A stretch of DNA of 64,000 nt from a virus (Duplodnaviria; Heunggongvirae; Uroviricota; Caudoviricetes). Below the pieces are notes generated by a model, which was not told where the DNA came from, made no database searches, and saw only the letters and a program-made list of their open reading frames with translations. Below, one piece after another: positions 1 to 37,113 of this stretch (its first letter is position 1; the number at the start of each line of letters is the position of its first letter). The translations under genes and the position numbers were made by a program. The stretch lies in the IMG/VR virus record IMGVR_UViG_2703718861_000013; one strand, written 5' to 3'.

Positions 1-188
1 GATACGGGGTAAGCCGCCCGGATAATCCCGACAGTAATACGCTGGGGTTACGTAATGCCCTGGCAATTGCTGGCGCGAAAAATGGTATCCGTGAAGCCGA
101 ACAGGATCGCCAGATGAACATACTGACGGGGGCTTCTGCACCGGCAAGACAGAAACTGAGTGTTGGCGGACAACTGGTGGCAGCGTAA
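1..188 (+). CDS. 3' end of an upstream phage ORF (partial, C-terminus ...GGQLVAAA)
   Basis: Open frame entering from the left edge, stop at 186-188, followed by RBS of next gene. Confidence 0.3.
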   Translation, partial: YGVSRPDNPDSNTLGLRNALAIAGAKNGIREAEQDRQMNILTGASAPARQKLSVGGQLVAA

Positions 189-197
189 GGAGGAAAT

Positions 198-449
198 ATG
201 GGGTACGGCTTACTGGATATTGCGAATCAGTCACGGCGTGAGGCATTACAGGGAATAAGTGACGCAGACCGACGACGTGAAGAAATTGAGGCTGCGAACA
301 AACAGATGGCGGCGCAACAGAAAGCGCAGAACAAGCAGAATATCGGTACGGGCATTGGTACGGGGGCGGCTATTGGCGCATCCGTTGGTGGTCCTGTTGG
401 TGCTGTTGCTGGAGCAGTAATTGGCGGCATTGCTGGTTCTTTGTTTTAA
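198..449 (+). CDS. small phage protein with charged N-half and Gly/Ala-rich glycine-zipper-like hydrophobic C-terminus
   Basis: 83-aa ORF, AAGGAGG RBS just upstream; C-terminus GTGIGTGAAIGASVGGPVGAVAGAVIGGIAGSLF. Confidence 0.5.
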   Translation: MGYGLLDIANQSRREALQGISDADRRREEIEAANKQMAAQQKAQNKQNIGTGIGTGAAIGASVGGPVGAVAGAVIGGIAGSLF

Positions 450-459
450 GGAGTGGTGA

Positions 460-1725
460 ATGAGCGGATTTGCACAGGGGTTACTTGCCGGATTCAGCAC
501 GGTTGACCAGGCAATGACCCGTCGTAAGGAGCTTGGTCTGCGTGAAGCACAGCTTGCCCGGCAACAGAAAAATAACGAGCGCGATTTTGAGTTTGCGCAG
601 TCTCAGTTTGAACATAATAAAAACGTTGATCAGCGGAACTTTGATTACAGAGCCAAAGTTGACGACCGTAATTATGCACTGAAGGAAAGGGAGTTTAACG
701 CTAACCAGAATTACCGGAATGCGTCGCTGGGTATGGAGCAGCAGCGACTCCGGATGCAGAAATACAACCAGCGACGGCTTGAGTATAACGATATGCTGGC
801 GCGCGATCAGCCTGTGATGGCGGCGCTTGGAAAGGCTGTGGATGCTGGCGATCGGGATGCAGCAATGCGTCTTTACGGCCAGTTGTCAGAGGGTAATCCG
901 CTGAGGCTGATGGCGAATGATGGCTATGTAGCGAAAGCGGGTCAGGCCGTGAACAACCTGCAAAAAATCTTTGATGACAAGCCAGACAGGGCTATCGCTT
1001 CACTTAATACGCCGGAGAATCTTGATGTCCTTTCCGGGGTGTTTGGCCCGGAACTGCAACAGCGTATTGGCATGCCCGATTCAACCGGGAAAAAGACGAT
1101 AAAAGAGGCCAGGATTGGCAGTATAGTACCGGCACAGCAGGAAGGGTACATACTTATCGGCCTTGATCTCACATACAGTGATGGCTCTACAGCACATAAA
1201 CCTGTAACAGAATACGGCAGTGCGCACCCTGATGATCAAACCGTGCTGGCGATACCCGTTGATAAGGCTATCGCTCAGGTCAGGGATCGCAGCAAATTTG
1301 CAGAGATATCGAAAAATTATGGTTATTTTATGCCGAAGCAGCAGGGACTTTCTCTGAAAGAGCTTCAGAAGGGGGCCAGCAACGTCGCGGCGGACGCGAT
1401 CAAGAATGGCGGTAATGCACAGGCTGCGGTGGATGAATATTATGCTGCGACTGGTTCACAACCGCATCAACAGAAAATTCAGCAACAAAAACTTCAGCAA
1501 CAGGTTATCAACTGGGCGGGAGATGATCCTGATAAGCTGTCATTTGCCAGAAATGTAGCGGCCCGTCAGCCTGAAATGCTGGAGCCTCAGAATCAGAAAT
1601 TGCTGGAGAACGGGTATGCGAATTTTCTCCGTATTCAAAAGGCCAGGGGGGAACAGGCCAGAGATGAAAGTGCTTCATCTGCATCTCAGTTTATCCGTGG
1701 ACTGAAACAGAATTACGCCCAGTAA
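460..1725 (+). CDS. hypothetical phage protein, Q/N/R-rich, 421 aa
   Basis: ORF with AAGGAG RBS, tightly packed after previous gene; no catalytic motif recognised. Confidence 0.55.
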   Translation: MSGFAQGLLAGFSTVDQAMTRRKELGLREAQLARQQKNNERDFEFAQSQFEHNKNVDQRNFDYRAKVDDRNYALKEREFNANQNYRNASLGMEQQRLRMQKYNQRRLEYNDMLARDQPVMAALGKAVDAGDRDAAMRLYGQLSEGNPLRLMANDGYVAKAGQAVNNLQKIFDDKPDRAIASLNTPENLDVLSGVFGPELQQRIGMPDSTGKKTIKEARIGSIVPAQQEGYILIGLDLTYSDGSTAHKPVTEYGSAHPDDQTVLAIPVDKAIAQVRDRSKFAEISKNYGYFMPKQQGLSLKELQKGASNVAADAIKNGGNAQAAVDEYYAATGSQPHQQKIQQQKLQQQVINWAGDDPDKLSFARNVAARQPEMLEPQNQKLLENGYANFLRIQKARGEQARDESASSASQFIRGLKQNYAQ

Positions 1726-1757
1726 TTCACGATATTCCATTAATACCATTTCCTGAT

Positions 1758-1783
1758 GCCCGGCCATTGTGCCGGGTTTTTTT
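1758..1783 (+). terminator. GC hairpin plus T-tract (intrinsic terminator-like) between the 421-aa gene and the giant gene
   Basis: gcccggc-cattgt-gccggg followed by ttttttt. Confidence 0.4.
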
Positions 1784-1794
1784 ATGGAGTCTGT

Positions 1795-4700
1795 ATGGCC
1801 TATTCAGAGGAACAGCGTCCTGAGGCGCAACTCGGTAACCAGAATCGTAACAGCCTGAACATTCAGCAACCCGGCGAAACTGACAGCTATGAAGCATTTT
1901 TCTCTGATCCGAATCGCTGGAAGGATAACAGTACGTCGTTCAGCCTGGGCGATGTATTGCCAACAATGGGTAAAGGTTTCGCCCAGTCCGTCCGGGGAAC
2001 AGGGGAAATGGCCCGTGGACTCGGTGATGCGATGATTCAGAGCCCGGTAAAAACAGGGGCGCGTATTTTAAATGAGTTCAGCCGTATGGGGCTGCCGGGT
2101 GTCGCAACTGTGCAGGATATTTTTGCCGGTGGCAGCAGGGGGGCTGATGAGGTCATCGATACCCTGCCTGATGGCAAAAACGCGGTTACTGATACTGTCG
2201 GTAAAGGTCTGAAGGCAACCGGTAAGGCTGTCAGTGATGGTGCTGAAGCCACTGATGAATGGCTGACCGGTAAGATGTCGCCGGGTGCAGTTCGTGCGCT
2301 GAATACGCCGATGACCGAAGGCTATGATGATTCTGCGGTCTGGGTGGCGAAGGGTGTAAACCTGATTGGTGCGCTTGTACCTGATATGGTTGCTGGCGGT
2401 GTGGCTAAAAAGGTGGGTGATGTCACACTGCGAAAAATGCTGACCGCCGGGCTGGAGAAAAAATACATCGCGGCAGGGATGCAGCCGGAAAGAGCCACGG
2501 CACTGGCAGCAGAAGCTGTCGATAAAAAAATGCCGGATTTATTCCAGGCGGGCCTGATCACCCATTCCACAGCCAGTGCACAGGGGCAGAGTGCAATGGC
2601 GGCAGCAGATGCTGTTCTTAATGCGGATTACTCTGAGCTGGCGCAGTCACCGAAATTTCAGCAGACGTTTTTGTCCATTGACGCCGACCCGCAGCACGCA
2701 CAGCTTACTGATCGCCAGAAAATGGATCTGGCAAAAGAGCGTGTTGCCGATGAGGTGCGCGCGCAGCTGGCAACCGATCCTGAATTGCTGGCTGTGAATG
2801 CCATGGCGGCAAAACTGGGTGACGCACAACTGTTTAATCTGGTGACACGAGGCACAGCGAAGACCGTTAAAAGCGGCATTGTCAGAAATGCCACGGAACA
2901 GGGGGCGATTAATGCGGCGCAGGGCGGCTATTCACGCTATCAGGAAAACACGGCATTGCGTGAGACCGCCGGAATGGATGTGTCACCGTGGGAGGGCGTG
3001 GCTGACGCAACGATCGAAGGTGCAGCCTTTGGTGCTGCGATGGGGGCTCCATCCGGTGCGGTTGCCGGATATCGTGGCAGACGTCAGGCCGCAGAAGAAG
3101 CAGCCATGCGTGATGCTGAAACCGTGCAGCAGGACGACGCAGCCCCGCAACCAGAATCTGTTGATCCGGTGGCGCAGCATCGTGAATCCATGCAGGGGAT
3201 GAATCGCGAGCAGCTTCTGGAGCAGTATGCTGATGCGGATATGGCAACAGAGGGGGACGCATCCGCAGCTCATCGCCGGGAAGCTGCCAGCCAGTTGTTG
3301 AATGAACTGGACGAACAGGCGAAGCGACAGGCTGTGATGAATGAGCTGAAGGCGAAGCCGCGTTCTGAACTGCTTGAGGAATACCGCAGACTCAGCCAGA
3401 AAGAGGAGCGCACCGAGACTGAAGAACAACAGTTTCAGGCAATACGAGAAGTCATTCGCCCACAACAGGAAGTGACGCCGGAAGCACAGTCACAGCCTGA
3501 AAATGCGGAGGATGGTAACGGGAGCATTTACCCGACGGTGCGGTTCCGGGACCCGAATGAAGTCCGCATTGAAATTAACGGGAATGGTGCGTCCAGACCA
3601 GCGGAACGCATTGAAAAGGTGCGCCCGGACAACCGTTATTTCACGGATGAGAAAAGCGCCATGGGGAGTGATGTTTTCCGTAATGCCGCCGCCACCGGCC
3701 TGAAACCGTCCGTAGTGAAGAAAGGCGAGACTCAATATGCTGTTGAAATGGATAATCCTGCGTTCTCTGAAGATGTGGCAACGGAAACCATTAACACCCT
3801 GGCTGACGGAGAGCGTATTGCTGATGCTGACCCGATGGAGCAGCCCGCGTTCATGCGTGACCCACGATTCCGTGGTTTCACGGGGGATGATACGGAGGTA
3901 CAGGCCCGCCTTGCCCGTGGCAACGTGCCGACGGCAGAGGAGCTTGTACGTTCACAGATGGCTGAAGGTGATGCCGGTCCGACAGCACAGGAGTTAACTG
4001 AGCGTCCACGCCTGCCCGCTCCCGGCGATATTCATCCCGGACAGGGATATCCGTTACCGGGAGAGGTGGCGCGTACGCCGGATGAGAATCAGGCAGGACG
4101 TGGTGGTCGTTTTACCACAACCGGTGAGGTTAAGGGCCAGAGTTTCCAGAAAGGACAAGCTCTGGCACCGGAAAACGCCGCTGGTCGCCAGGGGGAAACA
4201 CTCGAGGGTGAAATGGTTCGTCGTGGTCTGCCGTCACCGGATGCGCAGAACGCGACAGCACCGGTACGTGAAGGGCTACCGGCTCCGGACATTACACACA
4301 ATGTCCGTATGCCTCAGCCTGATCAGCTTCCCCGAACTGTTCGTAACTCATTGCCTGAGCTCGCACAGCAGGCAGAAGTACGTCGACAGGCCGGAGGAAA
4401 TCGTGACATCCCGCAGCCTGAGACAATCGCACCTGAATCTGAAACAACAGTCGCTACTGACAGGGAAGCTACCGTGCGCGGAGGTGAAGTCAGGGGCAAA
4501 AAAATTGAAGACTTTGGTGAAGAAATTAAGGGCGCGGCAAAACACCGTTATGCACAGCTTGCTGAAACACTGGGTAAAACGCTGGAAGACAGGGATTATG
4601 TCACGCAACCGCTGAGCAAACTGTTCCCGAAACCGGACTACGCAAAACTGGCGAGCGAAGGGGCTGATGCTGACACCCTGGCAATGATAGCGCTGTATCG

Positions 4701-7700
4701 TAGCGATATTCCGGTGAAGACGAAACACAATACGGCAGGCTGGGGGGAGAGCGTAAAAAAAGTACGACACAGTGTATCGGAAATGCTGAACGGAACGGTC
4801 AGCGCGAAACGCCTCGCAGAATGGATGGAAGGCAGAATGCCCTCCCGTTACGCGGACACCTGGCAACTGTTACGCACTCTGCCACCCTCACAGATGGACA
4901 AGGCTTCTGCTTATCGGGTGGTATCGGGTGTGTATCAGGCGGCAGGAGGGAAGCGTTACGATCCGCCACAGAAACTTTATTCACTGCGCAATAAGGACAA
5001 TAAGGGGAGTAACCTCTTTTTCTCGGAAAGCAGGGATGAATTACTGGCAAAGGCGAAAGTCTGGTTTGCAGAGCAGGAGGAAAAATCACAGGCGAAAGGT
5101 GATGAAAAAACAGCACCGTCTCCGGATGACAAAATCCGCTTTGACGTTTACCGGAATACCCGCAGTGGCGATATTTTTATCGCTTACGGTAAAAACAAAA
5201 TGCGGGTGAGAGGTGGCTTTAAGTCAGCCAGTGATGCGCGTAAGTACATTGATTTACATCGTGATGAGCTTGTTCGTCATGTGAAGGAGATGCGGGAGAT
5301 TTCGCGTGAGGAGCAGCGCAACGCCACCAACCGCGACCGTACCGGACCAGAACGCCGCAAGGGGGATGTTTCACCGGAGCAGTTCAGTGATGCGTTTGGT
5401 TTTCGTGGTGTGCAGTTTGGTAATTATGTGGAAAGTCCGCGTCGTCAGGCTGATTTGAACCGGGCTTATGACTCGCTGCATGACCTGGCTGACGTGCTGA
5501 ATGTACCGACAAAAGCGCTTTCTCTGAACGGTCGTCTTGGGCTTGCTTTTGGTGCCCGTGGTAAGGGTAAGGCGGCGGCACACTATGAGTCAGGTGAGGT
5601 GGCAATCAACCTGACAAAAGGTAACGGACCGGGTGCGCTGGCGCACGAATGGTTCCATTCTCTGGATAATTATTTTGGTCGTTATGACGTTTCCAGTGAC
5701 GGGAAAATTACGTCAGGTGGCGACTTTATGACGGAAGCACAGCGTGTCAGGCGCATATTTAAAGACGGCAGGTATGTTGATGCTGAATATCCGGTACGTC
5801 AGGAGGTTTACGACGCTTTTAAAGGTGTGATTCAGGCCATTAAAAACAGTGACATGCCGCGTCGTTCAGCGCTTCTTGATGAGGTGCGCTCAAAACCGTA
5901 CTGGTCAACGGATGTTGAAATGGCGGCACGTGCCTTTGAGCGTTATGTTCAGGATAAGGCGCGTATGGCTGGCGTGGAGAATGATTATCTGGTCAATATC
6001 CGTAAGGCACCTGAGCACAACACAGATAACACCTACGCTTATCCGACGAATGCGGAACTGGATGGCGGTATTCGTGAGGCATTCGATCACCTGTTCCGCA
6101 CCCTGAAAACCCGTGAGACGGACAAGGGCGTTGCGTTTTATTCCCGTAAGGGCATGACCCGCACACCTGAAGGTAATCTCATTTCGGATGTTAACCGTAG
6201 TGCGGAAGCCAAAGGCAGCCCGGTCCCGCAGGTTGAAGCGGTTGCCCGTGGCGTGATGAGCGGCATTAAGGACAGTGACCTGACGGTCCGTGTGGTGAAG
6301 TCACAGAAAGAGGCTGAAGCGCTGGCGGGTGAATCGTTCGACGGTTACGGCAGGGTGCACGCATTCTATCGTCCGGATAAACGAGAAATTGTCCTGGTGG
6401 CGGATAACATCCCTGACGGGCAGACCGTACGCGAGAAGTTGCGTCACGAGATTATCCACCATGCCATGGAGCATGTTGTCACGCCAGCGGAATATCAGAC
6501 GATTATCAAAACCGTGCTGAAAACCCGCGACAGTGATAACGCCACCATCCGTGAAGCCTGGCGTAAGGTTGATGCGTCCTATGGTAAGGAATCACCGGAA
6601 GTACAGGCGGGTGAATTTCTGGCACATATGGCGGAGAAACAGCCGAATAAATTCGTGGCGGCATGGGAGCGTGTTGTTGCCCTGGTCAAAGGGGTACTGC
6701 GTCGTACGGGGTTACTGAAGCCGACGGAACTGAACGATATCAGACTTGTTCGCGAGACCATCCGTACGTTAGGCCAGCGTGTGCGGGAAGGTTACACGCC
6801 GCGTGAGGATGGCGTGGGCGCATCGTCTCAGTACTCCCGTAGTGGTAAGCCTGATCCGTTCAAAGTGCCGGAAGGTGAGGGTGAACGTTATCGCGATGAC
6901 CTTGCCAGAATGATGAAATCTCTGCGTACCACAGATTTAACGGTAAACATCGGGCGTACGCCGCCGGTATTGCGTCACCTTGGTGCACCGGATTTGCCGC
7001 TGGTTATTTCCCGCGATACTGTGCGGAAGGCCACCAATGGTGTGAAACATGTGGTGCCGATGGATGTTATCGAGAGACTACCGGAACTGATGCACGATCC
7101 GGATGCAATTTACCGCTCAGCGACAGAAAGAAATGCGGTTGTGATGCTGCTTGATGCCGTGGATAAAAATGGTGATCCGGTAGTGTCTGCGGTGCATATG
7201 AAGGCAACCCAAAAACTTCTGGAAGTTAACCGTATTGCTTCTGTTTACGGAACGGAAAACGGGAAAAAACTGAAGAGTATGGAAACGGCTGGCTTAACAT
7301 TATACAGGAGAGAAAAACTAAACCCTGATGGTTCTCTGTACAGAGGGCTCCAATTGCCCAAAGATGAGCACTCCCGTCAGGGTTCTGCGGATAAAATACT
7401 CTATCCTGAAGATATTCGCAAGGGGCCGTATTACTCCCGTACCAGCAGTCTGACACCGGAAGAGACAATTGCATCGCGTTTTGTGCGCCAGATGCAGGAT
7501 AAATTCCAGGTGCTGAAAGCTGTTCAGGAGAATATCCGTAAAACTGGTGGAAAAATAGACGACAGTAACAACGCTTATATGGCGGAAGAACTCTTCCACG
7601 GGAAGGCGGAAAACGACCTGAACGTGATGAAGGAGCGCTACGTTCAGCCACTGGCTAAATTACTGGCGGACTACAAAATTGCGCAGGCCGATCTGGATGA

Positions 7701-10176
7701 GTACCTCTACGCCCGTCACGCGCCGGAACGTAACGCGCATATCGCGAAAATCAACCCGAAAATGCCGGACGGCGGTTCGGGGATGACCAACGCGGAGGCG
7801 GCGGAAATCATGCAGCGTGTACGTAACAGCGGCAAACAGGCACAGTATGACCGTCTGGCAGGGATTGTTGACGATATGCTGGCCCGTCGCCGTGAGCTTA
7901 TCCGTGAGGCAGGACTGGAAGAGAGCGGCGTGGTGGATGCCTGGCAGAAAGCCTACCGTTACTACGTTCCCCTGAAAGGGCAGGATGTTGACGGTGTGGT
8001 GTCACTGCCACGTACAGGCAAGGGATTCACCATCGGCGGGCGTGAAAGTAAGCAGGCCATGGGGCGCGCATCCCGCGCACAGTCTCCTTCCACTCAGGCG
8101 ATACAGGATTTGAGCGAATCACTGATCCGCAATCGCAAAAATGAAGTGGGTAACGCCTTCCTGAAACTGGTACAGGATAATCCCGACAAGGATTACTGGC
8201 AGGTATTCACCGATGACAGACCGGATACCATGCGGACGATTGCAGAGCGCAAGGACAAGGAAACTGGTGAAACCATTCGCGAAGTTGTCGAACGCCCTGT
8301 ACCGATGGCAATGATGGCAGACCGGTACTTCACCACCAAAAAGAACGGCAAAACGTACTACATCAAACTCCATGATCCGCGCCTGATGCGTGCGATGAAG
8401 AATATGGGACCGGAAACCAGTAACGCCGTAATCCGCACGCTGGGGAAAGTTAACCGCTTCCTGGCAACGGTGAACACGTCGTATAACCCGGAATTCCTGG
8501 TCAGTAACTTCATCCGTGACGTACAGACGGCGGTGATGAACCTGAAGGCGGAGCAGGGAAGGAGCGACGGCAAACTGAAAGGGCTGGATAACTTATCCGC
8601 ACTGGCTGTGGTGAAAGACAGTCGGTCTGCCATGTCTGCCGTATACGCCAGTCTGCGTGGTAAAACCCTCACGGGCAACGGTGCGCAGTGGCAGAAGGTG
8701 TGGAAAGAGTTTGTTGAGGACGGAGGTAAAACCGGCTGGTTTAACATGGGTGACCTTGAAGGCCAGCAGAAGGAAATGGATCGCCTTGTATCGCTGGCGA
8801 AGGGAGGATGGAAAGGCCAGAGTATCGGTGCATGGAATTCGTTCCTTAACCTTGTCGAGGATGCCAACGGGGCGGTTGAAAACGCTCTGCGTCTTTCTGC
8901 CTATAAACACGCCCGTGATGCCGGTTTGTCACGCCAGCAGGCGGCGTCTCTTGCCAAAAACATGACGGTGAACTTTAACCGTCGTGGTGAGCAGGGGGCG
9001 CTGATGAACTCGCTGTACATGTTCGCCAACGCCAGTATTCAGGGAACGGCAAATCTGGTGAGAACGCTCGGACATCTTAATGGTGAGGGACCTTTACTGG
9101 AGCGCCTTCGCTGGAAGAATCTGAATGTTCCGCAGAAAATCGCGCTTGCCGCTGTGGGAGCGGGTTATCTGCTTGGCTCGCTTAACCGCAGCGTGGCGGG
9201 TGAGGATGATGACGGGGTTAACTGGTATGACAAAGTACCGTCTCATGTGAAAGAGCGTAACCTCGTCATTATGAAATCGGTGTTCGGGGGCAAGGCCGGA
9301 GAGTACTGGAGTATTCTTCTGCCTTACGGGTACAACGTTTTCTTCCTGCTTGGTCACACAGCCGAAGGGGTGGCAGCGGGCGACCTGACCGCTTCACGTG
9401 CTGCCGGTAATGTTGTTGGTGGTGTGCTTGGGGCATTCAGTCCTGTGGGCAGTGAAACGTCGGAAACACTGTCCGGGGCATTGCTGAAAAATGCAGCGCC
9501 GACCATTCTGCGTCCGTTTGCGAACCTTGCCATGAATGAAAACTTCATGGGGGCGCAGATTTACCAGGAGAACATGCCGTTTGGTACACCAAAACCTGAC
9601 AGCCAGCTGGGAAGACGTTCAACGCCAGAAGCGTACAAGGCGTTTGCATCCTGGCTGAATGCGTTCTCAGGTGGCAGCCAGTACCGTCCCGGCGCGGTGG
9701 ATATCACACCGGAATCGCTGAAATTCTGGATTGACTATATCTCCGGAGGGACAGGGCGCTTCATTTCCAAAACCACGGATGCGGCGGTGAAATCGCTGAA
9801 TGGTATTGATATACCGGAACAGCAGGTGCCCTTCCTGGGGAAAATTTCGGGGGAGGTGATGCCGTATGCAGACCAGCAGAAGATGTACGACCGGATGACA
9901 GAGATTGCGCAGTATCACGCAGAGCTGAAGAGTCTGACCGGTGCAGAAAGAACGGCGTTCATTGACGAGAACAACGGAAAATTGTCGATGAACGGGCTTA
10001 TGCAGGATACCCGGAAGAGACTGAAGGATTTGCGTAAACAGCGTGATGCCATTTATGCCGACAGTTCTCTCAGTCTGGCGCAGCAGGCGGCGATAGTGAA
10101 ATCGGTAGAGCGGGATATGAAGGTTGCCGTGGATCGCTTTAACCGCGAGTACAACAAAAAAGTGGGAGTGGATTAA
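1795..10176 (+). CDS. giant multidomain phage protein (~2793 aa) with two zincin-like HExxH motifs (HEWFH, HEIIHH); possible polyvalent or virion-delivered protein
   Basis: Single uninterrupted 8.4-kb ORF; start chosen at first ATG after the hairpin (MAYSEEQ...); motifs at nt ~5641-5660 and ~6440-6460; no Walker A or methyltransferase motif seen. Confidence 0.8.
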   Translation: MAYSEEQRPEAQLGNQNRNSLNIQQPGETDSYEAFFSDPNRWKDNSTSFSLGDVLPTMGKGFAQSVRGTGEMARGLGDAMIQSPVKTGARILNEFSRMGLPGVATVQDIFAGGSRGADEVIDTLPDGKNAVTDTVGKGLKATGKAVSDGAEATDEWLTGKMSPGAVRALNTPMTEGYDDSAVWVAKGVNLIGALVPDMVAGGVAKKVGDVTLRKMLTAGLEKKYIAAGMQPERATALAAEAVDKKMPDLFQAGLITHSTASAQGQSAMAAADAVLNADYSELAQSPKFQQTFLSIDADPQHAQLTDRQKMDLAKERVADEVRAQLATDPELLAVNAMAAKLGDAQLFNLVTRGTAKTVKSGIVRNATEQGAINAAQGGYSRYQENTALRETAGMDVSPWEGVADATIEGAAFGAAMGAPSGAVAGYRGRRQAAEEAAMRDAETVQQDDAAPQPESVDPVAQHRESMQGMNREQLLEQYADADMATEGDASAAHRREAASQLLNELDEQAKRQAVMNELKAKPRSELLEEYRRLSQKEERTETEEQQFQAIREVIRPQQEVTPEAQSQPENAEDGNGSIYPTVRFRDPNEVRIEINGNGASRPAERIEKVRPDNRYFTDEKSAMGSDVFRNAAATGLKPSVVKKGETQYAVEMDNPAFSEDVATETINTLADGERIADADPMEQPAFMRDPRFRGFTGDDTEVQARLARGNVPTAEELVRSQMAEGDAGPTAQELTERPRLPAPGDIHPGQGYPLPGEVARTPDENQAGRGGRFTTTGEVKGQSFQKGQALAPENAAGRQGETLEGEMVRRGLPSPDAQNATAPVREGLPAPDITHNVRMPQPDQLPRTVRNSLPELAQQAEVRRQAGGNRDIPQPETIAPESETTVATDREATVRGGEVRGKKIEDFGEEIKGAAKHRYAQLAETLGKTLEDRDYVTQPLSKLFPKPDYAKLASEGADADTLAMIALYRSDIPVKTKHNTAGWGESVKKVRHSVSEMLNGTVSAKRLAEWMEGRMPSRYADTWQLLRTLPPSQMDKASAYRVVSGVYQAAGGKRYDPPQKLYSLRNKDNKGSNLFFSESRDELLAKAKVWFAEQEEKSQAKGDEKTAPSPDDKIRFDVYRNTRSGDIFIAYGKNKMRVRGGFKSASDARKYIDLHRDELVRHVKEMREISREEQRNATNRDRTGPERRKGDVSPEQFSDAFGFRGVQFGNYVESPRRQADLNRAYDSLHDLADVLNVPTKALSLNGRLGLAFGARGKGKAAAHYESGEVAINLTKGNGPGALAHEWFHSLDNYFGRYDVSSDGKITSGGDFMTEAQRVRRIFKDGRYVDAEYPVRQEVYDAFKGVIQAIKNSDMPRRSALLDEVRSKPYWSTDVEMAARAFERYVQDKARMAGVENDYLVNIRKAPEHNTDNTYAYPTNAELDGGIREAFDHLFRTLKTRETDKGVAFYSRKGMTRTPEGNLISDVNRSAEAKGSPVPQVEAVARGVMSGIKDSDLTVRVVKSQKEAEALAGESFDGYGRVHAFYRPDKREIVLVADNIPDGQTVREKLRHEIIHHAMEHVVTPAEYQTIIKTVLKTRDSDNATIREAWRKVDASYGKESPEVQAGEFLAHMAEKQPNKFVAAWERVVALVKGVLRRTGLLKPTELNDIRLVRETIRTLGQRVREGYTPREDGVGASSQYSRSGKPDPFKVPEGEGERYRDDLARMMKSLRTTDLTVNIGRTPPVLRHLGAPDLPLVISRDTVRKATNGVKHVVPMDVIERLPELMHDPDAIYRSATERNAVVMLLDAVDKNGDPVVSAVHMKATQKLLEVNRIASVYGTENGKKLKSMETAGLTLYRREKLNPDGSLYRGLQLPKDEHSRQGSADKILYPEDIRKGPYYSRTSSLTPEETIASRFVRQMQDKFQVLKAVQENIRKTGGKIDDSNNAYMAEELFHGKAENDLNVMKERYVQPLAKLLADYKIAQADLDEYLYARHAPERNAHIAKINPKMPDGGSGMTNAEAAEIMQRVRNSGKQAQYDRLAGIVDDMLARRRELIREAGLEESGVVDAWQKAYRYYVPLKGQDVDGVVSLPRTGKGFTIGGRESKQAMGRASRAQSPSTQAIQDLSESLIRNRKNEVGNAFLKLVQDNPDKDYWQVFTDDRPDTMRTIAERKDKETGETIREVVERPVPMAMMADRYFTTKKNGKTYYIKLHDPRLMRAMKNMGPETSNAVIRTLGKVNRFLATVNTSYNPEFLVSNFIRDVQTAVMNLKAEQGRSDGKLKGLDNLSALAVVKDSRSAMSAVYASLRGKTLTGNGAQWQKVWKEFVEDGGKTGWFNMGDLEGQQKEMDRLVSLAKGGWKGQSIGAWNSFLNLVEDANGAVENALRLSAYKHARDAGLSRQQAASLAKNMTVNFNRRGEQGALMNSLYMFANASIQGTANLVRTLGHLNGEGPLLERLRWKNLNVPQKIALAAVGAGYLLGSLNRSVAGEDDDGVNWYDKVPSHVKERNLVIMKSVFGGKAGEYWSILLPYGYNVFFLLGHTAEGVAAGDLTASRAAGNVVGGVLGAFSPVGSETSETLSGALLKNAAPTILRPFANLAMNENFMGAQIYQENMPFGTPKPDSQLGRRSTPEAYKAFASWLNAFSGGSQYRPGAVDITPESLKFWIDYISGGTGRFISKTTDAAVKSLNGIDIPEQQVPFLGKISGEVMPYADQQKMYDRMTEIAQYHAELKSLTGAERTAFIDENNGKLSMNGLMQDTRKRLKDLRKQRDAIYADSSLSLAQQAAIVKSVERDMKVAVDRFNREYNKKVGVD

Positions 10177-10299
10177 CAGAAATGGCCCCGTACGGAAGTG
10201 CGGGGCTGATTAAGGAATAAACACACATTAACCTGTAATAACCGGAGCTATTAACATATAGTCAGAAAGAGTATTTCATGTGAGACAGAGAGCCGATTT

Positions 10300-10491
10300 A
10301 TGTTTAATGAAGAAAAAGTTGCGCAAATGGCAGCGTATTTGCTGAAAAAGCATGGCGGATCTATGCGTTTCATTAAGCTGATGAAGCTGATGTATCTCTC
10401 TGACCGCAAAGCAATGGAGTCTTTAACCGGGAAGGGGAGAGGTTTGAATGCTCCCCCACAATTCCCCGGCATCAAATCTCCATGCAGGTGA
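10300..10491 (+). pseudogene. short ORF resembling the N-terminus of a DUF4065/Panacea-domain protein, apparently truncated
   Basis: MFNEEKVAQMAAYLLKKHGGSMRFIKLMKLMYLSDRKAMESL... then low-complexity tail and stop after 63 codons. Confidence 0.3.
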
Positions 10492-10577
10492 ACTATTTTA
10501 CCCCCAGCGGCAAATCGCAAAAACAATCAGTGCGATCGAAATGGCAGCCACTACAATTGCAAATGCTTCAGGCTAGG

Positions 10578-11504
10578 TCATTGGCTTACCTCCTTCGGCG
10601 GTTCTGGTAGCGGCATCCAGTGGGTTACTTCTTTGAGATGCAGGTCTTCGCCATCACCGTCATCCCAAGTGGGATTGCCATCATTAAACCAGTCGCCATA
10701 TACGCCGACCTGAGTGTTGGGGATGCTTGGTGGGTAGTTGTTTTTAAAGTCAGCTGCTAACACATAGTATTGTCGCTCTCCCATTTCTGGCATTCGATCA
10801 CTACAGCTTATCCAACCATCCGGAGTTACCGGAACTGGCGGAACGGCTGTTTGCTCTCGAACGTCATTAGTCGCTATCGGTTCTGCTGCCAACTGACTGG
10901 CATATTTGTTAATGGTAACGATAAGCTCTTGCTCAGCCTCATCCAGACAATCACCGATACCTCGCCTGTCACCGTCAAAATCATCGAAATCGGCACGAAT
11001 CTTGGCAACCTTCTGGATTGCGGACAACACCTCACTAGGAATTACCGGATAGTTGGTTGACGTTTCCGCGATTTCCCGAAAATTATTGGTTGACGAATTC
11101 TTGTTTTCCCGAAAGTTTCCGGACTGAAGCATGGCGGCGCGGCAGGCATTCCAGCCTCTTACCTCTGCAATAGCGGCAACCGCATCAACCGCGTACATGC
11201 TAAGAGGATTAGGCATTGGTTTTTCTTCCGGTACTACTGGTGCTGGAGGGGCGGCGTAAATGCCCTCTATCACTAAATGTTTGCGCTCAAAATCATCTGG
11301 CTCTCGATGATATACGTAACTCCAATCACCAAGGTTATCATTGCGCCTGCAACGGAAACCTATCGGCTCGGCTTCCAGCGCTGCCAGAGCAATTCGTGCC
11401 AGTTCTTCCGCTTCTTCTGCTGGCAGTACAACGTTGCTACCAGGTCCGTATGTTTCGCGCCACTGCTTGATTGTCAGTAGTCGCTCTTTGGTAATAGTGA
11501 TCAT
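10578..11504 (-). CDS. phage protein with DUF551-like C-terminus
   Basis: 308-aa ORF; C-terminal ...YGDWFNDGNPTWDDGDGEDLHLKEVTHWMPLPEPP pattern typical of DUF551 as I recall it. Confidence 0.55.
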   Translation of the reverse strand: MITITKERLLTIKQWRETYGPGSNVVLPAEEAEELARIALAALEAEPIGFRCRRNDNLGDWSYVYHREPDDFERKHLVIEGIYAAPPAPVVPEEKPMPNPLSMYAVDAVAAIAEVRGWNACRAAMLQSGNFRENKNSSTNNFREIAETSTNYPVIPSEVLSAIQKVAKIRADFDDFDGDRRGIGDCLDEAEQELIVTINKYASQLAAEPIATNDVREQTAVPPVPVTPDGWISCSDRMPEMGERQYYVLAADFKNNYPPSIPNTQVGVYGDWFNDGNPTWDDGDGEDLHLKEVTHWMPLPEPPKEVSQ

Positions 11505-12046
11505 GCCGCGTTTCCTTCTTTCTTATTAACAATTACACCGTCATATATTTCATTAAGGTGCCCTCTCAACTCCATGCGCCTTAATGCAGATAACATGTAA
11601 TCGCATTCAACCTGCTTATTCCCAATAAAAGGTTTATCTTCAGGGTTACCCCAACAGCAATTCCCCTTGGGCCATCCATGTACTTTCCGTACTCTTCCGT
11701 TAACAACGTGAAGTAATCCCCAGCCAGGTGGTAAATCCTCAATTGAAATAATTCCCGGCTCACTAATAAAGAATCGCCAGTCGCCCATTCCAAGAGACGG
11801 ATTTTTACGAAAACGCTTTTTTCTATCTGCCAACAAGTCAGCACGAGAACATTTCGCCTCTATCAGGCATGATGCTGAATTTCTGAATCCCATAGCATCT
11901 GGCTGTTCTCCGGTACTGGTTACAGCTATAAAGCGGTCATGAAAACAAACCTTGAACCCGTTGCGCTTAAGGAACTTGTACGCAATCTGACAGAGTTCGC
12001 GGTGTGTTAACGCCATATCACTCTCCTTTGATGCGAATGCCAGCAA
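11501..12046 (-). CDS. hypothetical phage protein, possible PD-(D/E)xK nuclease fold
   Basis: 181-aa ORF overlapping neighbours by 4 nt; D...E.K spacing (PDAMGF...CLIEAKCS). Confidence 0.45.
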   Translation of the reverse strand: MLAFASKESDMALTHRELCQIAYKFLKRNGFKVCFHDRFIAVTSTGEQPDAMGFRNSASCLIEAKCSRADLLADRKKRFRKNPSLGMGDWRFFISEPGIISIEDLPPGWGLLHVVNGRVRKVHGWPKGNCCWGNPEDKPFIGNKQVECDYMLSALRRMELRGHLNEIYDGVIVNKKEGNAA

Positions 12047-12968
12047 GCCAGTTTCTTATGCCGATATATTCAGCGTTCCGGAAACCGCTTTTTACATATA
12101 TAAATGGCAAGCGAAGATTGTGACCATTGACTGCCAGGTAGTCTTTACAACCCTGTTCGGTGAAACAGCAGGTAACGAATTCATCAATATCTTTCACAGC
12201 AACGCGCCGCCATTTTTCTGGTGGCTCTCGAAAGTTTTCATGAAGTAGCTCGAGACGACGACTATGGCGTTTATTGGCTTCATTGCCATCTTCGTCAACC
12301 CAGACAATCCGGTCATGGTCATAATCAGCATCAACAACGATTTCGCGCTTTTGATACACACAAAACATGGGATCTGACGTTATTCGATTGTCCTGTGTTC
12401 GAATATTTTCACCGATGATGCCAAACGAATCTGGTGCAGATTTTGTCTGCATCTCTTCGATACGTTCAGCCATCGCAGCACACTCTTCAAAGTTGCTTAA
12501 TGCTTTTCGCTCCCATTCGGCGCATTGTTTTTCCAGTTCTGCTATGCGCTTACTTCCATCCGCGATTACTCCCTCGTAATATTCACGCTGCTCGTTGAGT
12601 TTTGATTTTGCTGTTTCAAGCTCAACGCGCAGCTTCCCTACCGTAAGCGCAATATCCTCGTTCTCCTGGTCGCGGCGTTTGATGTATTGCTGGTTTCTTT
12701 CCCGTTCATCCAGCAGTGCCAGCACGGTAGCCGGATTGGCTGCGGCGATGAATTCAGCATTGGCCTGCTGTTCCATTTGGAAATCTTCATCGAAACCGCT
12801 TTCAGGATGTGCTCCTTCAATTCTGCAAATGGGAATATATCCAGCAGCCTCGCGATGAATTAGTGCATCATCACCATCAAATCGGTTCTCTCCATATTCG
12901 AGCGACCACTCACCACGCGTTGCTTTTTCTGCCTTTTCACGCAGTACCTGATAGTTAATCTCGCTCAT
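12018..12968 (-). CDS. Ea22-like lambdoid accessory protein
   Basis: N-terminus MSEINYQVLREKAEKATRGEW resembles Ea22-family starts; long coiled-coil middle. Confidence 0.5.
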   Translation of the reverse strand: MSEINYQVLREKAEKATRGEWSLEYGENRFDGDDALIHREAAGYIPICRIEGAHPESGFDEDFQMEQQANAEFIAAANPATVLALLDERERNQQYIKRRDQENEDIALTVGKLRVELETAKSKLNEQREYYEGVIADGSKRIAELEKQCAEWERKALSNFEECAAMAERIEEMQTKSAPDSFGIIGENIRTQDNRITSDPMFCVYQKREIVVDADYDHDRIVWVDEDGNEANKRHSRRLELLHENFREPPEKWRRVAVKDIDEFVTCCFTEQGCKDYLAVNGHNLRLPFIYVKSGFRNAEYIGIRNWLAGIRIKGE

Positions 12969-13239
12969 TTTTCTCTTCGCTCCGGTATACAAGAATTACA
13001 ACGTCACCTCTGCTAATTACGCGAGCTGGATCTCCTGGCTCCATGCTGTCAATCCCGAAGGCTTCGGAAAACGCATTCATTGCCTTCTGGCGTTGATCCT
13101 GCTTACGGCATTTATTCCATTTTTTCAGTAACAACAGCGATAGCCACCGCCCGGCGCAGAACATAATGTAAAAATAACCAAGAAGCGCCAGACCTGTGTT
13201 GAGGGCCGTATCGATCGTTATAGTGGTGTCTATGCTCAC
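12955..13239 (-). CDS. small hydrophobic protein
   Basis: 94-aa ORF in operon context, hydrophobic N-terminus. Confidence 0.4.
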   Translation of the reverse strand: MSIDTTITIDTALNTGLALLGYFYIMFCAGRWLSLLLLKKWNKCRKQDQRQKAMNAFSEAFGIDSMEPGDPARVISRGDVVILVYRSEEKNERD

Positions 13240-13457
13240 TTCACACCTCTCTGTTTGTTGATAAGTTCAATATCCTGCTGGCAACTGGCGCAAGTTCGGC
13301 ATCCGCGAACAGCCTGGCGTCGCCGCTCATCTATCGGATCGCCACACTCGCAACAATGAGTAGCAGATGGGGCATTACTTTCGGATTTGTATTTTTGCAG
13401 GGAGAGATTGCGCTGCAATTCTTCGATTTCAGCGGCATTGTCGATGATATCTGCCAT
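13236..13457 (-). CDS. TraR/DksA-type C4 zinc-finger protein
   Basis: 73 aa with CCECGDPI...CRTCASC four-cysteine spacing. Confidence 0.6.
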   Translation of the reverse strand: MADIIDNAAEIEELQRNLSLQKYKSESNAPSATHCCECGDPIDERRRQAVRGCRTCASCQQDIELINKQRGVK

Positions 13458-13504
13458 TTTCCTTTCCTTCAGGCATGAAAAAAGGAGCCGAAGCTCCTTT
13501 GGTA

Positions 13505-14128
13505 TCAGAATTCAAATTGTCTTGCTCTTAGTTGCGCTAGCATACTTCTGGCCCTATGCACCATATAGTTGGCGGGATCAAGTTTTGCTGCTTCGCGGAG
13601 CAATGTGTCGCGAGTCCGGTTGGTTATATGACGAGTCTCGTAGGCCAGATCAAACAGTTTCCCGTAGTAATCAGAATTCAGTTCTCTCATGACGGGGTAT
13701 AGCTGCTTACTGAGTTGTTGTGCTTTTTCCATCCAGAGTTGAACGTAGCAGAGCAGGATGATGTCTTCTGCTGTGAATTGCTGCTCAGTTTGTACTGGCT
13801 GAATGTTGCGAAGTTTCTTTTCGCACTCGATGAAGTATCGGCGTATCTGGCGGCCTTTTTCGTTACGTTCAACCATCGCAAGCTCTTTGGCTGTGTCGAG
13901 GGTGAGGTGGTAATCCTTGCGGCGGCGGCCTGGAGTTTTCGCCAAATTTGGCGAAAATAGAATGTAGTCTAAATTTTCTACGAATCCATACTCGTTTAGC
14001 TTGGCCCGTATCCAGTTAGAAAAATCTTTACCTACCTCTAAAAATCCATGCAAATCACGCGCGTTCACCAGAAGCGTAGGTTCATTTGAGATTGTACCTT
14101 CAAACACAGGGATGAGTTGAGTGGTCAT
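13505..14128 (-). CDS. AntA-like phage antirepressor
   Basis: MTTQLIPVFEG...LLVNARDLHGFLEV...FSNWI...DYHLTLDTAKELAMVERNEKGRQIRRYFIECE; RBS AAGGAGG before the internal Met chosen as start. Confidence 0.6.
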   Translation of the reverse strand: MTTQLIPVFEGTISNEPTLLVNARDLHGFLEVGKDFSNWIRAKLNEYGFVENLDYILFSPNLAKTPGRRRKDYHLTLDTAKELAMVERNEKGRQIRRYFIECEKKLRNIQPVQTEQQFTAEDIILLCYVQLWMEKAQQLSKQLYPVMRELNSDYYGKLFDLAYETRHITNRTRDTLLREAAKLDPANYMVHRARSMLAQLRARQFEF

Positions 14129-14377
14129 GATGACCTCCTTTGGCTTTTTTCGAGAAATGCCACCACAAAATGTGGTGCCGGGAGGCTCGAAACGGCCCAA
14201 AAGATACCGCGGACTTATTCCCCTTGCGGGTGTTGTATTCGTCGCCCTCCCGACATTGATCGGGGATGTGACCGCACACTGTGCTATCACTGAATAACAG
14301 GCATAAAAAATCCAACACTGACGGGGTTGGTTTAATCCGCTTTTGGGAGGTTTTCGAGGCCTCGGCGCGGAGTATAG

Positions 14378-14665
14378 TCAGTATTGGACGCAGTCGTCAA
14401 CCATCGCCGTTTCTTTGGCTGTGTCGAGGGTGAGGTGGTAATCCTTGCGGTTGTGACCGCCTCTACCAGATGTTTGCTTTCCCAAATTGGAAAGCAAAAT
14501 ATAGTCTTGATTTTCAATGAATTCGTATTCTGAAATGCGATTTGTAATCCATGCCGCAAACACCTTTTTCACGCCTAAAAAAGCATGCAGATCGCGGGCA
14601 TTGCAGAGTAGGGCTGTTTCGTTGTCGATAGTGCCGTTGAATACGGGGATGAGTTGATTAGCCAT
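14378..14665 (-). CDS. truncated paralogue of the AntA N-terminal domain (95 aa)
   Basis: MANQLIPVFNGTIDNE...NARDLHAFL...DYHLTLDTAKE; shares a 36-bp identical stretch with the upstream paralogue. Confidence 0.45.
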   Translation of the reverse strand: MANQLIPVFNGTIDNETALLCNARDLHAFLGVKKVFAAWITNRISEYEFIENQDYILLSNLGKQTSGRGGHNRKDYHLTLDTAKETAMVDDCVQY

Positions 14666-14992
14666 AATTATGACTCCTGACGTTTTAGTATTGACTGCCA
14701 CCTTAGTGGGGTGGCGGGCTTCAACTACCGCGTCAGACGGCGGAGCGTATTTCCCGAAAGGGTATTGTATTAGGCTCTCTCGACCCGCCATTGATATGGC
14801 GATACCTGTAAACAGGCATAAAAAAGCCGCAAAGCTATCGGGTGCGGTTGACCGCTGACGTTGTAGTGCAGTCAGTATGCGATAGCTCTGGCAGATTTGT
14901 CAAATCGTGCAGTAACATCCTTTTCTTCCTTGCCATTTCTCAATGATGACAAAGGGTGGATTCGGATTGGTATTGGGACAAAAGTGAGACAC

Positions 14993-15026
14993 ACAAAGCT
15001 TTGCATCGGCTTACAAAGCTTTGCAT
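14993..15026. repeat. two 14-bp direct copies of acaaagctttgcat, each containing the palindrome caaagctttg, 20 bp centre to centre
   Basis: Read directly; sits ~75-105 bp inside the element end next to ynfG. Confidence 0.6.
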
Positions 15027-15099
15027 GTTTTTCAATGTTGGGACGTGTGAGCGCAGAAATGACGGGCTATCTAATTGATTTTAAACGATACGTAACCAA

Positions 15100-15184
15100 C
15101 TTTAAAATCTTTGCACGCCAGTTCGCAGGTTTTACAGCCAGTACAGCGGCTGGAATCGATAAAAAATCCATATTGTGTGGTCAT
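15100..15184 (-). pseudogene. ynfG: 5' fragment of ynfG (Fe-S subunit of DMSO-reductase-family enzyme), truncated by insertion
   Basis: Minus strand reads MTTQYGFFIDSSRCTGCKTCELACKDFK then diverges into VGYVSFKIN-stop. Confidence 0.8.
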
Positions 15185-29390: not shown

Positions 29391-29595
29391 GAACATAAAT
29401 CCATTTTATCAATAAGATAAGAGGAAGTGTCAGCTGACAAAAGGTATTCTATTTCATCTTTTGTCAACCATTCACAGCGCTAATATACGCCTTTTTTTGT
29501 GATCACTCCGGCTTTTTTCGATCTTTATACTTGTATGGTAGTAGCTCAGTTGCGTAGATTTCATGCATCACGACAAGCGATGCAAGGAATCGAAC

Positions 29596-30810
29596 ATGAA
29601 GATCGTAAAGGCTGAAGTTTTTGTTACCTGTCCGGGGCGTAATTTCGTCACATTAAAAATCACCACTGAGGACGGTATTACGGGCCTTGGGGATGCCACC
29701 CTCAATGGACGTGAGCTTTCCGTGGCCTCTTATTTGCAGGATCACCTTTGTCCGCAGCTTATTGGTCGCGATGCGCACCGTATCGAAGATATCTGGCAGT
29801 TTTTCTATAAAGGTGCTTACTGGCGTCGCGGTCCGGTTACGATGTCGGCCATTTCAGCGGTTGATATGGCGCTGTGGGATATTAAAGCCAAAGCTGCCAA
29901 CATGCCGCTTTACCAGTTACTCGGCGGCGCGTCTCGTGAAGGGGTGATGGTTTATTGCCATACCACCGGTCACAGTATTGATGAAGCTCTGGATGATTAT
30001 GCCCGTCATCAGGAGCTGGGATTCAAAGCCATCCGCGTGCAGTGCGGAATCCCTGGTATGAAAACCACCTACGGCATGTCGAAAGGTAAAGGTCTGGCTT
30101 ATGAACCCGCAACCAAAGGACAGTGGCCGGAAGAGCAGTTGTGGTCGACGGAGAAATACCTCGATTTCATGCCGAAATTGTTTGACGCGGTACGTAACAA
30201 GTTTGGTTTTAATGAACATTTGCTGCATGACATGCACCATCGCTTAACGCCTATTGAAGCGGCGCGCTTTGGTAAAAGCATTGAAGATTATCGCATGTTC
30301 TGGATGGAAGACCCGACGCTTGCAGAAAACCAGGAATGCTTCCGTCTCATTCGCCAACATACCGTCACACCCATCGCAGTGGGTGAAGTCTTCAACAGCA
30401 TCTGGGACTGCAAACAACTGATTGAAGAGCAACTCATCGATTATATCCGCACCACGCTGACCCATGCAGGCGGAATTACCGGTATGCGCCGGATTGCCGA
30501 TTTTGCTTCGCTGTATCAGGTACGTACTGGCTCACACGGTCCTTCCGATTTGTCACCAGTCTGCATGGCTGCAGCGCTGCACTTTGATCTGTGGGTCCCC
30601 AATTTCGGTGTCCAGGAATACATGGGTTATTCCGAACAAATGCTCGAAGTCTTCCCGCACAACTGGACTTTCGATAACGGCTATATGCATCCGGGAGACA
30701 AACCGGGTCTTGGCATCGAATTCGATGAAAAGCTGGCGGCGAAATATCCCTATGAACCTGCTTATCTACCAGTCGCACGTCTGGAAGATGGCACGCTGTG
30801 GAACTGGTAA
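29596..30810 (+). CDS. rspA: starvation-sensing protein RspA (enolase superfamily, mannonate dehydratase-like)
   Basis: [40 protein letters not shown]...; start at internal Met with RBS. Confidence 0.9.
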
Positions 30811-36778: not shown

Positions 36779-36836
36779 AAAAACGGCGGCAGAGCAGTCA
36801 CGGAGTAAAACTGATACCGCCAAACGTCACCAGAAA
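36779..36836 (-). ncRNA. dicF: DicF small RNA (ftsZ-targeting)
   Basis: Minus strand reads tttctggtgacgtttggcggtatcagttttactccgtgactgctctgccgcc plus T-tract; matches DicF as remembered. Confidence 0.75.
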
Positions 36837-36867
36837 ATTGATAACAGAGGGCGTTGCAGCGGGGTTG

Positions 36868-37059
36868 TCACTTAAGCGTATGGTCAACCTGACAACTCGG
36901 TGTCCTCAACGGGGAAGGAATAACCCCGCCATACTTACCGCCGCGCCATTTTGCGGGTTGCCACAACCGGAAGCGCACGGTCGAATTAAATTTAACGACA
37001 CCGTACAGCGAGACGAACTTCGCCGTGCGCTTTCGTGTTGTGTGCCTGCTTTTAACCAC
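36868..37059 (-). CDS. ydfC: YdfC-like small protein
   Basis: 63-aa ORF upstream of dicF in the dicB operon. Confidence 0.4.
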   Translation of the reverse strand: MVKSRHTTRKRTAKFVSLYGVVKFNSTVRFRLWQPAKWRGGKYGGVIPSPLRTPSCQVDHTLK

Positions 37060-37113
37060 GTCAGGCGAGGTGGTATCCTTAAAATCACCACAGTTTTAAG
37101 GATTCATTAAGCA

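Follow-up and report, generated by a model that had tools for sequence, protein, structure and literature searches.

A P22-type attachment arm at the ynfG junction of an Stx1a prophage and a candidate Xis-binding repeat within it

We analyzed the junction between a prophage and the host gene ynfG in a window of 64,000 nucleotides (the whole stretch of DNA under study). Positions 14965-15106 almost certainly represent the P arm and core of attR, derived from a P22-type attP, and within the P22 Int/Xis/attP family, sequence comparison assigns the element to the branch represented by POCJ13 / 75-02. A POCJ13 / 75-02-type Stx1a phage entered ynfG via a P22-family tyrosine integrase, with exchange taking place within the 7-bp sequence CTTTAAA. 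Two palindromic direct repeats inside the arm are predicted to form its Xis-binding and bending segment, an assignment that we rank above an RNA hairpin and that we consider to have about an even chance of being correct.

The prophage and the interrupted gene are arranged in the window as follows:
1-15099: right-hand ~15 kb of the Stx1a prophage, a short-tailed lambdoid element of 63.6 kb that belongs to the POCJ13 / 75-02 Stx type
15100-15106: attR core (overlap region), CTTTAAA, located by three-way alignment and by matches to intact ynfG
15107-15184, minus strand: ynfG 5' fragment, which together with the core comprises 28 codons + 1 nt and has the first ferredoxin Cys motif aboard

The right-hand plus-strand late genes of the prophage extend to a gene for a 2806-aa LPD5 protein and are followed by minus-strand genes for DUF551, Ea22, DUF4752, TraR, Ant, and AntA, ending at the ynfG junction. 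Over 6 kb, the window shows 100% identity to a number of complete STEC chromosomes, S19-651, STEC17-183, and JNEC-KY179 among them. In the STEC genomes, the upstream DNA continues as one prophage, and the other end is located 63.6 kb upstream. This upstream part contains int, xis, exo/bet/gam, the immunity region, cII, replication genes, Q, stx1A/stx1B, and lysis genes, as well as structural genes for terminase, portal, an N4-gp56-type capsid protein, and the short tail. At the far end, 52 bp separate the 3' part of ynfG from the end of an open reading frame for a site-specific integrase of 387 aa (its stop codon), and the same layout of ynfG and int was found in S19-651. The first-pass annotation had proposed a phage-like element inserted in ynfG, with its other end to be sought upstream and a rearrangement as the alternative. 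Since the rest of ynfG adjoins a P22-family tyrosine integrase with its Xis at the upstream end, the insertion is borne out and the rearrangement is discarded.

With regard to its closest relatives, the last 700 bp of the prophage show 99.2% identity to Shigella phage POCJ13 and 89.6% to phage 75/02 Stx. The att arms of the POCJ13 / 75-02 phages are identical to those of this prophage from approximately window 14893 to the core, and the antA region upstream of the arm is 89.6% identical to 75/02 and 82.7% to PhiR5_2 (mosaic differences only). Moreover, ynfG is split at the same point as in the POCJ13 / 75-02 Stx1a phages, and the features that define these phages are present here. POCJ13, 75/02 Stx, and the Stx1a prophage of RM10410 share with this prophage both ynfG integration and the stx1a cargo. 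Published work places the integration of POCJ13, 75/02, and the RM10410 Stx1a prophage of E. coli in ynfG, and thus neither the type of prophage nor the site that it uses is new.

The insertion point was examined by translation, by a junction probe, and by alignment. Translation of the minus strand from 15184 gives MTTQYGFFIDSSRCTGCKTCELACKDFK and thereafter encounters stops, and RefSeq labels window 15101-15184 (the ynfG 5' fragment) as a truncated 4Fe-4S protein. The probe comprised 321 bp, with query base 161 corresponding to window 15100, and covered 5426 complete E. coli genomes. Approximately 5200 complete genomes with intact ynfG match it from window 15100 onward only, and the whole junction is present in 82 of the 5426 (~1.5%). 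Together with the three-way alignment, the probe sets the limit of ynfG homology at exactly 15099/15100, and the gene start at 15184 and the loss of homology at this position, both read in the first pass, were thereby confirmed.

Three-way alignment of attL, attR, and intact K-12 ynfG revealed that CTTTAAA (7 bp) is the sole sequence common to all of them, and comparison with the intact gene likewise gives these 7 bp as the duplication. In attB, CTTTAAA is centred in a 17-bp near-palindrome, AAGAT-CTTTAAA-ATCTT. In genomes 100% identical to the window, the two copies are separated by 63,642 bp. The attL side retains the 3' 540 nt of ynfG (533 nt excluding the core), and the sum of the two fragments (85 + 540 - 7 = 618 nt) equals the length of K-12 ynfG. 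Given this common core and fragment lengths that add up to the whole gene, the insertion is a clean conservative site-specific integration with strand exchange within CTTTAAA. The same sequence pre-exists in attP, as the free-phage record of 75/02 terminates in ...CTTTAAAG. The insertion interrupts ynfG after codon 28 and parts the first ferredoxin Cys motif from the remainder. We also considered whether the phage provides the separated 3' portion of ynfG with a substitute start; the in-frame upstream sequence gives GTG-GTG-SNN and then a stop, with the Cys motif lost, and this idea was rejected.

The hexamer TTTAAA occurs both inside the phage (15080-15085) and at 15101-15106, and had been suggested to mark the crossover or target site. 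This holds for the outer copy, which belongs to the duplicated core CTTTAAA. The inner copy was rejected as a second crossover or target-duplication mark: it has no duplicate at attL, and P22 has TTAAAA at this place (TTGACTTAAAA), within an IHF-like site. Instead, it forms the A/T-rich flank of an IHF-like site, the one at -32 (TATCTAATTGATTTTAAA). The two TTTAAA contexts form a 9-nt perfect inverted repeat, GATTTTAAA/TTTAAAATC; by our own arithmetic, ~0.3 such repeats are expected per 600 bp, and therefore this symmetry is not significant.

The recombination genes at the far end were compared with those of known phages. The Pfam family PF00589 (Phage_integrase) matches Int over positions 1-171 of 172 (E = 1.5e-45), and the protein is identical to POCJ13 Int (100%), with 71.4% identity over 97% to ST64T Int and 73% to SfII Int. 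Next to it lies the gene for a putative excisionase:
L002 11583-11954 (NZ_AP045176 2337582-2337953), minus strand: xis ORF, 124 aa

The product of this ORF contains an HTH_17 domain (E = 7.5e-9) and shares 72% identity with ST64T Xis across 116 aa, and its length class and C-terminus match those of the Xis of phage Turner. The gene is located upstream of int and overlaps it by ~145 nt, as in P22.

The sites recognized in the P arm are listed below. All offsets are counted from the first overlap base (window 15100), which is position 0:
14974-14979, plus strand: arm-type site P1, TGGGAC, offset -126, as in P22/ST64T
14985-14990, plus strand: degenerate arm-type site P2, TGAGAC (CGGGAC in ST64T), offset -115, abutting X1
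14993-15006 and 15013-15026, plus strand: repeats X1 and X2, ACAAAGCTTTGCAT twice, exact 14-mers with a 6-bp spacer
15039-15056 (block), plus strand: arm-type site P3, TGGGAC, offset -61
15068-15080, minus strand: IHF-like site H, AATCAATTAGATA, offset -32, from a consensus scan, with 1 mismatch to WATCAANNNNTTR

TGGGAC is found at offsets -126, -61, +93, and +104 in both this phage and ST64T. The last two form a tandem pair 11 bp apart on the P' arm, within the 3' end of int, and P1 has a tandem partner 11 bp away in all relatives. The block that contains P3, TGGGAC(G/T)TGTGAGCGC, is near-invariant among nine P22-arm phages. Three more distant relatives have arm motifs at the corresponding positions: GF-2 has the arm motif TTGTGTCG at -134, -123, +94, and +105, and HK542 has TTGTGCC at -126, -115, -74, +92, and +103, while APSE-2 retains TGGGAC at -125 and -114. 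Because the motif co-varies with the integrase type at kept offsets (GF-2, HK542), the comparison identifies TGGGAC as the Int arm-type site. The recombination module as a whole is assigned to the P22 family because of the Int/Xis homology and the presence of arm sites at P22 offsets.

For the accessory protein IHF, an IHF-like match at -29 to -32 was found in 5/5 family members compared. On the other side of the core, ATTCAATTGCTTA at +49, a stronger match than that at -32, has 1 mismatch to the IHF consensus and is a consensus match only. P22, APSE-2, and HK542 have perfect IHF sites at the +49 offset, and across all five phages the site is at +49 or +50. As to the records that entered these comparisons, POCJ13, 75/02, and PhiR5_2 are 100% identical through the att arms and thus offer no variation for analysis. 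PhiR34_1 was left out, as the right end of its record is without a P arm (it is probably a mis-trimmed prophage), and the record of KO-TP1 terminates inside the P arm.

Overall, the arrangement agrees with that of P22/ST64T, whose Int and Xis are 71% and 72% identical to those of this phage, respectively, and in which xis likewise overlaps int, TGGGAC occupies the same offsets, an IHF-like site lies at +49, and a near-identical repeat pair is present. The target differs. P22 inserts into the anticodon-loop region of tRNA-Thr (thrW), where a 46-bp identity restores the tRNA, whereas this phage has a 7-bp identity inside the protein-coding gene ynfG, which is not restored. Integration at thrW is the one P22-module feature that was not found here; all the others tested are present. 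This prophage illustrates how a P22-type module can be retargeted from a tRNA gene to a palindrome in a protein-coding gene, with only the core region changed and the arm offsets kept. The P22 attP-Int-Xis module is reportedly the subject of Smith-Mungo et al. 1994 and Mattis et al. 2008.

The two repeats in the arm, X1 and X2, are 20 bp apart (start to start), and each contains the palindrome CAAAGCTTTG. Their offsets run from about -107 to -74, which places them in the interval that separates P2 from P3. The earlier description of two 14-bp direct repeats with an internal palindrome, 74-107 bp from the junction, was accurate. The segment can alternatively be divided into three 10-bp units, GCTTTGCATC / GGCTTACAAA / GCTTTGCATG, with a (C)TTGCA periodicity of 10 bp. 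By our own arithmetic, chance would place two exact copies of a 14-mer within 30 bp of each other ~0.007 times in 64 kb, and a search for further copies of the repeat motif with up to 2 mismatches detected none, either within the window or across the 49.5 kb of prophage outside it, immunity region included. In P22/ST64T, the repeat pair is present at the same offset, scored as -109/-89 in the ST64T comparison, with X1 and the spacer identical and X2 differing at 2/14 bases; the P22 sequence of this segment is ACAAA(G/T)CTTTGCATCGG(C/T)TTGCAAGGCTTTGCAT, and in P22, ST64T, and epsilon34, TTGC occurs three times with 10-bp spacing. The exact P22 Xis site, as we take it here, is a putative one, set by analogy.

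We favor Xis as the protein that binds these repeats, at roughly even chances. Between P2 and P3, 45 bp are left without an assigned site, the only such stretch, and the repeats occupy it. They show the 10-bp (C)TTGCA periodicity, and they are found in phages whose Xis has a DNA-binding domain of the P22 kind (this phage, ST64T, P22, ENT47670, and Turner). Finally, they are missing in APSE-2 and GF-2, both of which have a diverged Xis helix-turn-helix, although APSE-2 still has TGGGAC. In the proposed mechanism, the P22-type Xis would bind the repeats cooperatively, head to tail, and bend attR, which in excision would bring the Int molecules on P1/P2 within reach of the core. Consistent with this, a secondary source describes P22 Xis as acting cooperatively on 'operators' in attP with strong DNA bending, and as spreading over Int sites at high concentration. 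The same source describes most recombination directionality factors as binding repeats one helical turn apart.

The layout also resembles the P arm of lambda. In lambda attP, the order of sites is P2 - X1 - X1.5 - X2/F - H2 - core. Both arms have two related sites ~20 bp apart with a degenerate middle unit, placed on the core-proximal side of an arm-type site (X1 directly after P2) and followed by an IHF site by the core, and both systems have a 7-bp overlap. The two differ in that there is no sequence similarity between them, and in that an extra arm site, P3, is located here between the repeats and the IHF-like site. In addition, lambda Xis has 72 aa, whereas the Xis here is a 116-124-aa HTH_17 protein.

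Three findings count against the assignment to Xis. First, the middle 10-bp unit is degenerate, in contrast to the one-turn spacing of most directionality factors. Second, the Turner-type Xis domain is essentially that of P22, yet the X1 half differs at 8/16 bases, with pairing kept. Third, a ~50-bp module containing the repeats is present in many phages that have other integrases (among them HK542, HK75, JEP4, Stx2 phage 1717, and SEN22), at 200-450 bp from their att cores, and at such a distance it cannot serve the geometry of excision.

In the main alternative, X1 and X2 pair with each other as RNA. The resulting hairpin could act on leftward int transcripts, either as a terminator like tI or as an RNase III site of the sib kind. 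We regard this as possible but less probable than Xis binding, with which it is compatible. The features concerned are:
14989-15028, minus strand (int-sense): predicted hairpin with a 17-bp stem and a 6-nt loop, then CUCACUUUUG, from a terminator scan
14874-14903, minus strand: sigma-70-like promoter, TTGACA-18-CATACT, just past the P arm and directed toward antA/ant (consensus match only)

In the circular phage, the hairpin would act on int transcripts, and it may be bidirectional, given a T5 run following on the plus strand. In the lysogen, host ynfEF transcription (minus strand) enters the prophage at attR and meets the hairpin ~70 nt inside, followed by the promoter-like site (14903-14874) and antA/ant. 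Here the hairpin would be the first structure for host ynfEF read-through, before the antirepressor genes. The hairpin predicted here resembles lambda tI/sib in being an int-sense hairpin beyond att, so that int is linked to it in the circular phage and separated from it after integration. The position differs, as lambda sib is outside the arm, whereas this hairpin lies within the P arm, between arm sites.

Several observations support an RNA structure. The terminator scan scored the element as terminator-like, with 17 pairs and a loop of 6. The minus-strand fold has a predicted energy of -23.1 kcal/mol (z = -4.6), compared with z = -2.1 for the plus strand. Among 13 phage variants, pairing on the int-sense strand is kept in 87.8% of cells, versus 81.9% on the other strand; three pairs are altered on both sides, and the observed score was reached in 0/500 shuffles. 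A further scan of viral contigs, anchored solely on positions invariant in the first set, yielded more than 120 homologues, of which 78 were aligned, giving 48 distinct sequences. The 17 distinct P22-arm variants among these contigs, in which the P22-type P3 block follows, show 93% pairing on the int-sense strand, and their outer pairs alternate between U-G/G-U and C-G/A-U. Moreover, other annotators placed a terminator at the same spot in the SfII and epsilon34 records, the module is retained in phages with unrelated att sites, often directly after the last late gene, and the promoter-like site for the next genes is downstream of the hairpin.

Set beside a Rho-independent terminator, with its G+C-rich stem and directly adjoining U-tract, the element gives a mixed picture: the stem is long (17 bp) but has just 5 G-C pairs, with tails of CUCACUUUUG (minus strand) and CAUGUUUUUC (plus strand). 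Against the hairpin, the U-tract in CUCACUUUUG is weak and begins 5 nt past the stem. A mid-stem C.A mismatch is present on the int-sense strand in 33/48 distinct sequences, and in the 31 variants from non-P22 contexts, both strands pair equally (81%). No hairpin occurs at this position in APSE-2, GF-2, or the own P arm of HK542, and Rfam gave no family match, only a chance mir-19 match below threshold. The covariation itself is confounded, since a tandem duplication of a palindrome pairs automatically; SfII X1 also keeps its own internal symmetry. Because such a duplication satisfies both, covariation fits two palindromic protein sites as well as a hairpin.

A dual role of the ~50-bp module, as an Xis site in DNA and as a (bidirectional) terminator or sib-like hairpin in RNA, seems to us rather unlikely. 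If it were true, the RNA role would explain why the module survives as a conserved mosaic joint in many lambdoid phages with unrelated integrases. In ynfG lysogens, the hairpin would then also shield the antirepressor genes at the end of the prophage from ynfEFGH read-through, and lysogen stability would be tied to the structure of the att arm.

Four further explanations of the repeats were weighed, all of them improbable. The least improbable takes the repeats as CII (P22 C1) activator sites of a CII-dependent promoter in the att arm; such a site has the form TTGC-N6-TTGC and straddles a -35 region. In the epsilon34 record, the corresponding stretch indeed bears two overlapping features labelled 'putative CII-binding sites', the threefold 10-bp-spaced TTGC of P22, ST64T, and epsilon34 suits such a site, and a CII-family protein is encoded by the prophage. 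However, this phage has TTGC-N6-TTAC-N6-TTGC, with no perfect TTGC-N6-TTGC, and in phages of the SfII/Turner group the segment reads TCAC-N6-TTGC-N6-TTAC. The repeats are not followed by a credible -10 element, the promoter scan found nothing there, and an RNA from a plus-strand promoter would be antisense to int, without an evident role. These observations make CII binding very doubtful.

Slightly harder to sustain is the possibility that the palindromes are themselves IHF sites, with CAANNNNTTG as the core of WATCAANNNNTTR. Each repeat does contain the 13-mer IHF consensus with 2 mismatches, on both strands, but the ATC part of the consensus is missing. Better IHF-like matches are those at -32 and +49, positions that are conserved in five relatives, and APSE-2 and GF-2 retain the other IHF-like sites and not the repeat palindromes.

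Less probable again is the proposal, made in the first-pass annotation, that the repeats are integrase arm-type sites. They are direct repeats in the P arm, and a weak third copy, CTTTGCAT, is present at ~+66 in the P' arm. This copy is missing in P22, APSE-2 keeps TGGGAC and lacks the repeats, and it is TGGGAC that flanks the repeats and holds the canonical arm positions, changing with the integrase type at the same fixed offsets (GF-2, HK542). The broader idea that the repeats belong to the machinery at the end of the element stands, as part of the recombination machinery of the P arm; integrase arm sites, transposase sites, and repressor sites do not.

We give virtually no weight to repressor operators, or to a transposon end with target-site duplication. 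Palindromic repeats do look operator-like, and each end carries a copy of the same 7 bp. However, neither the cI/cro region nor any other part of the prophage contains the motif again. The 63.6-kb element encodes a tyrosine integrase and Xis but no transposase, and its ends have no terminal inverted repeats and are unrelated save for the 7-bp core. One copy of these 7 bp is, moreover, already present before insertion both in the uninterrupted ynfG gene and in the DNA of the free phage (75/02 record).

The exact crossover and the arm anatomy are thus pinned for the ynfG-integrating Stx1a phages, which also occur in Stx-producing Shigella. The arm anatomy follows directly from P22 and holds nothing surprising for a specialist, and its practical value is modest; the one aspect that has been explored less is a possible double function of the tandem palindrome, in DNA and in RNA, together with its spread as a mosaic joint. 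In addition, RefSeq calls a 22-codon piece of the xis ORF near int a pseudogene. This label is probably an annotation error, and the ORF is very probably an intact P22-type xis.

The ~50-bp module that comprises P1, P2 and the repeats (GACAAAACTGAGACACACAAAGCTTTGCACTGGATTGCAAGGCTTTG) was found again in many lambdoid phages whose integrases are of other kinds; there it lies 200-450 bp from the att core. Among the 48 distinct variants of the module that were aligned, 31 occur in contexts other than that of the P22-type P3 block. Examples are as follows.

HK542, 2870-2945: P1-P2-repeat module
JEP4, HK75, Stx2 phage 1717 and SEN22, around 1501-1550 of each locus: P1-P2-repeat module

Homology of the module ends abruptly just past ...GCTTTG; the sequences beyond this point are of at least five different kinds. 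The module behaves like a conserved mosaic joint. A second conserved segment surrounds arm site P3 (window 15039-15056): the block TGGGAC(G/T)TGTGAGCGC hardly varies among nine phages whose arms differ elsewhere, and its conservation exceeds the need of an arm site alone. A related GCGAACGCGGA block is common to GF-2 and KO-TP1.

As its bacterial target the phage uses a near-perfect palindrome of 17 bp, AAGATCTTTAAAATCTT, with the 7-bp overlap at its centre; the phage core arms (AACCAA / GTTGTT) bear only weak resemblance to this palindrome.

K-12 ynfG, codons 26-31: target palindrome
Window 15095-15111: right half of the target palindrome

Around the core, the symmetric A/T-rich sequence also gives a weak promoter score on both strands (window 15078-15108; TTTAAA-17-TAAAAT, 9/12); this score probably arises incidentally from the IHF-like and core sequences.

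Adjoining int, RefSeq records a pseudogene of 22 codons, labelled 'helix-turn-helix, incomplete', both in the prophage of JNEC-KY179 (NZ_AP045176.1) and in NZ_CP075852.1. The full-length ORF, the same in both records, is as follows.

NZ_AP045176.1, 11583-11954, minus strand: xis, 124 aa

Its product shares 72% identity with P22/ST64T Xis, and its match to Turner Xis reaches the C-terminus; judged by these protein comparisons, xis is probably intact and the RefSeq annotation wrong. The Stx1a prophage's large terminase gene (40750-42454 of the JNEC-KY179 locus) is annotated as frameshifted, and therefore this copy may yield no phage even upon excision.

Rfam detected two matches to sRNA-Xcc1 (RF02221) in the window (74.5 and 53 bits), each with an antirepressor ORF immediately downstream.

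14169-14254, minus strand: sRNA-Xcc1 match
14705-14789, minus strand: sRNA-Xcc1 match
13505-14128: Ant ORF
14396-14665: AntA fragment

Because each match directly precedes an antirepressor ORF, this arrangement is more suggestive of a leader that acts in cis on the Ant/AntA genes than of a free sRNA. At 14378-14791, the 137-aa ORF probably over-extends through the second copy.

The window also holds a second lambdoid prophage, which adjoins rspB, starts ~10 kb past ynfG, and carries integrase, excisionase, exonuclease, ydfD, dicB and dicC genes. Coordinates are listed below, together with the Rfam matches that lie further on.

About 25466-30050 and 36784-48794: second lambdoid prophage and the Rfam matches further on
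36784-36835: DicF
42040-42214: sok
45509 and 48410: two cspA thermoregulator leaders
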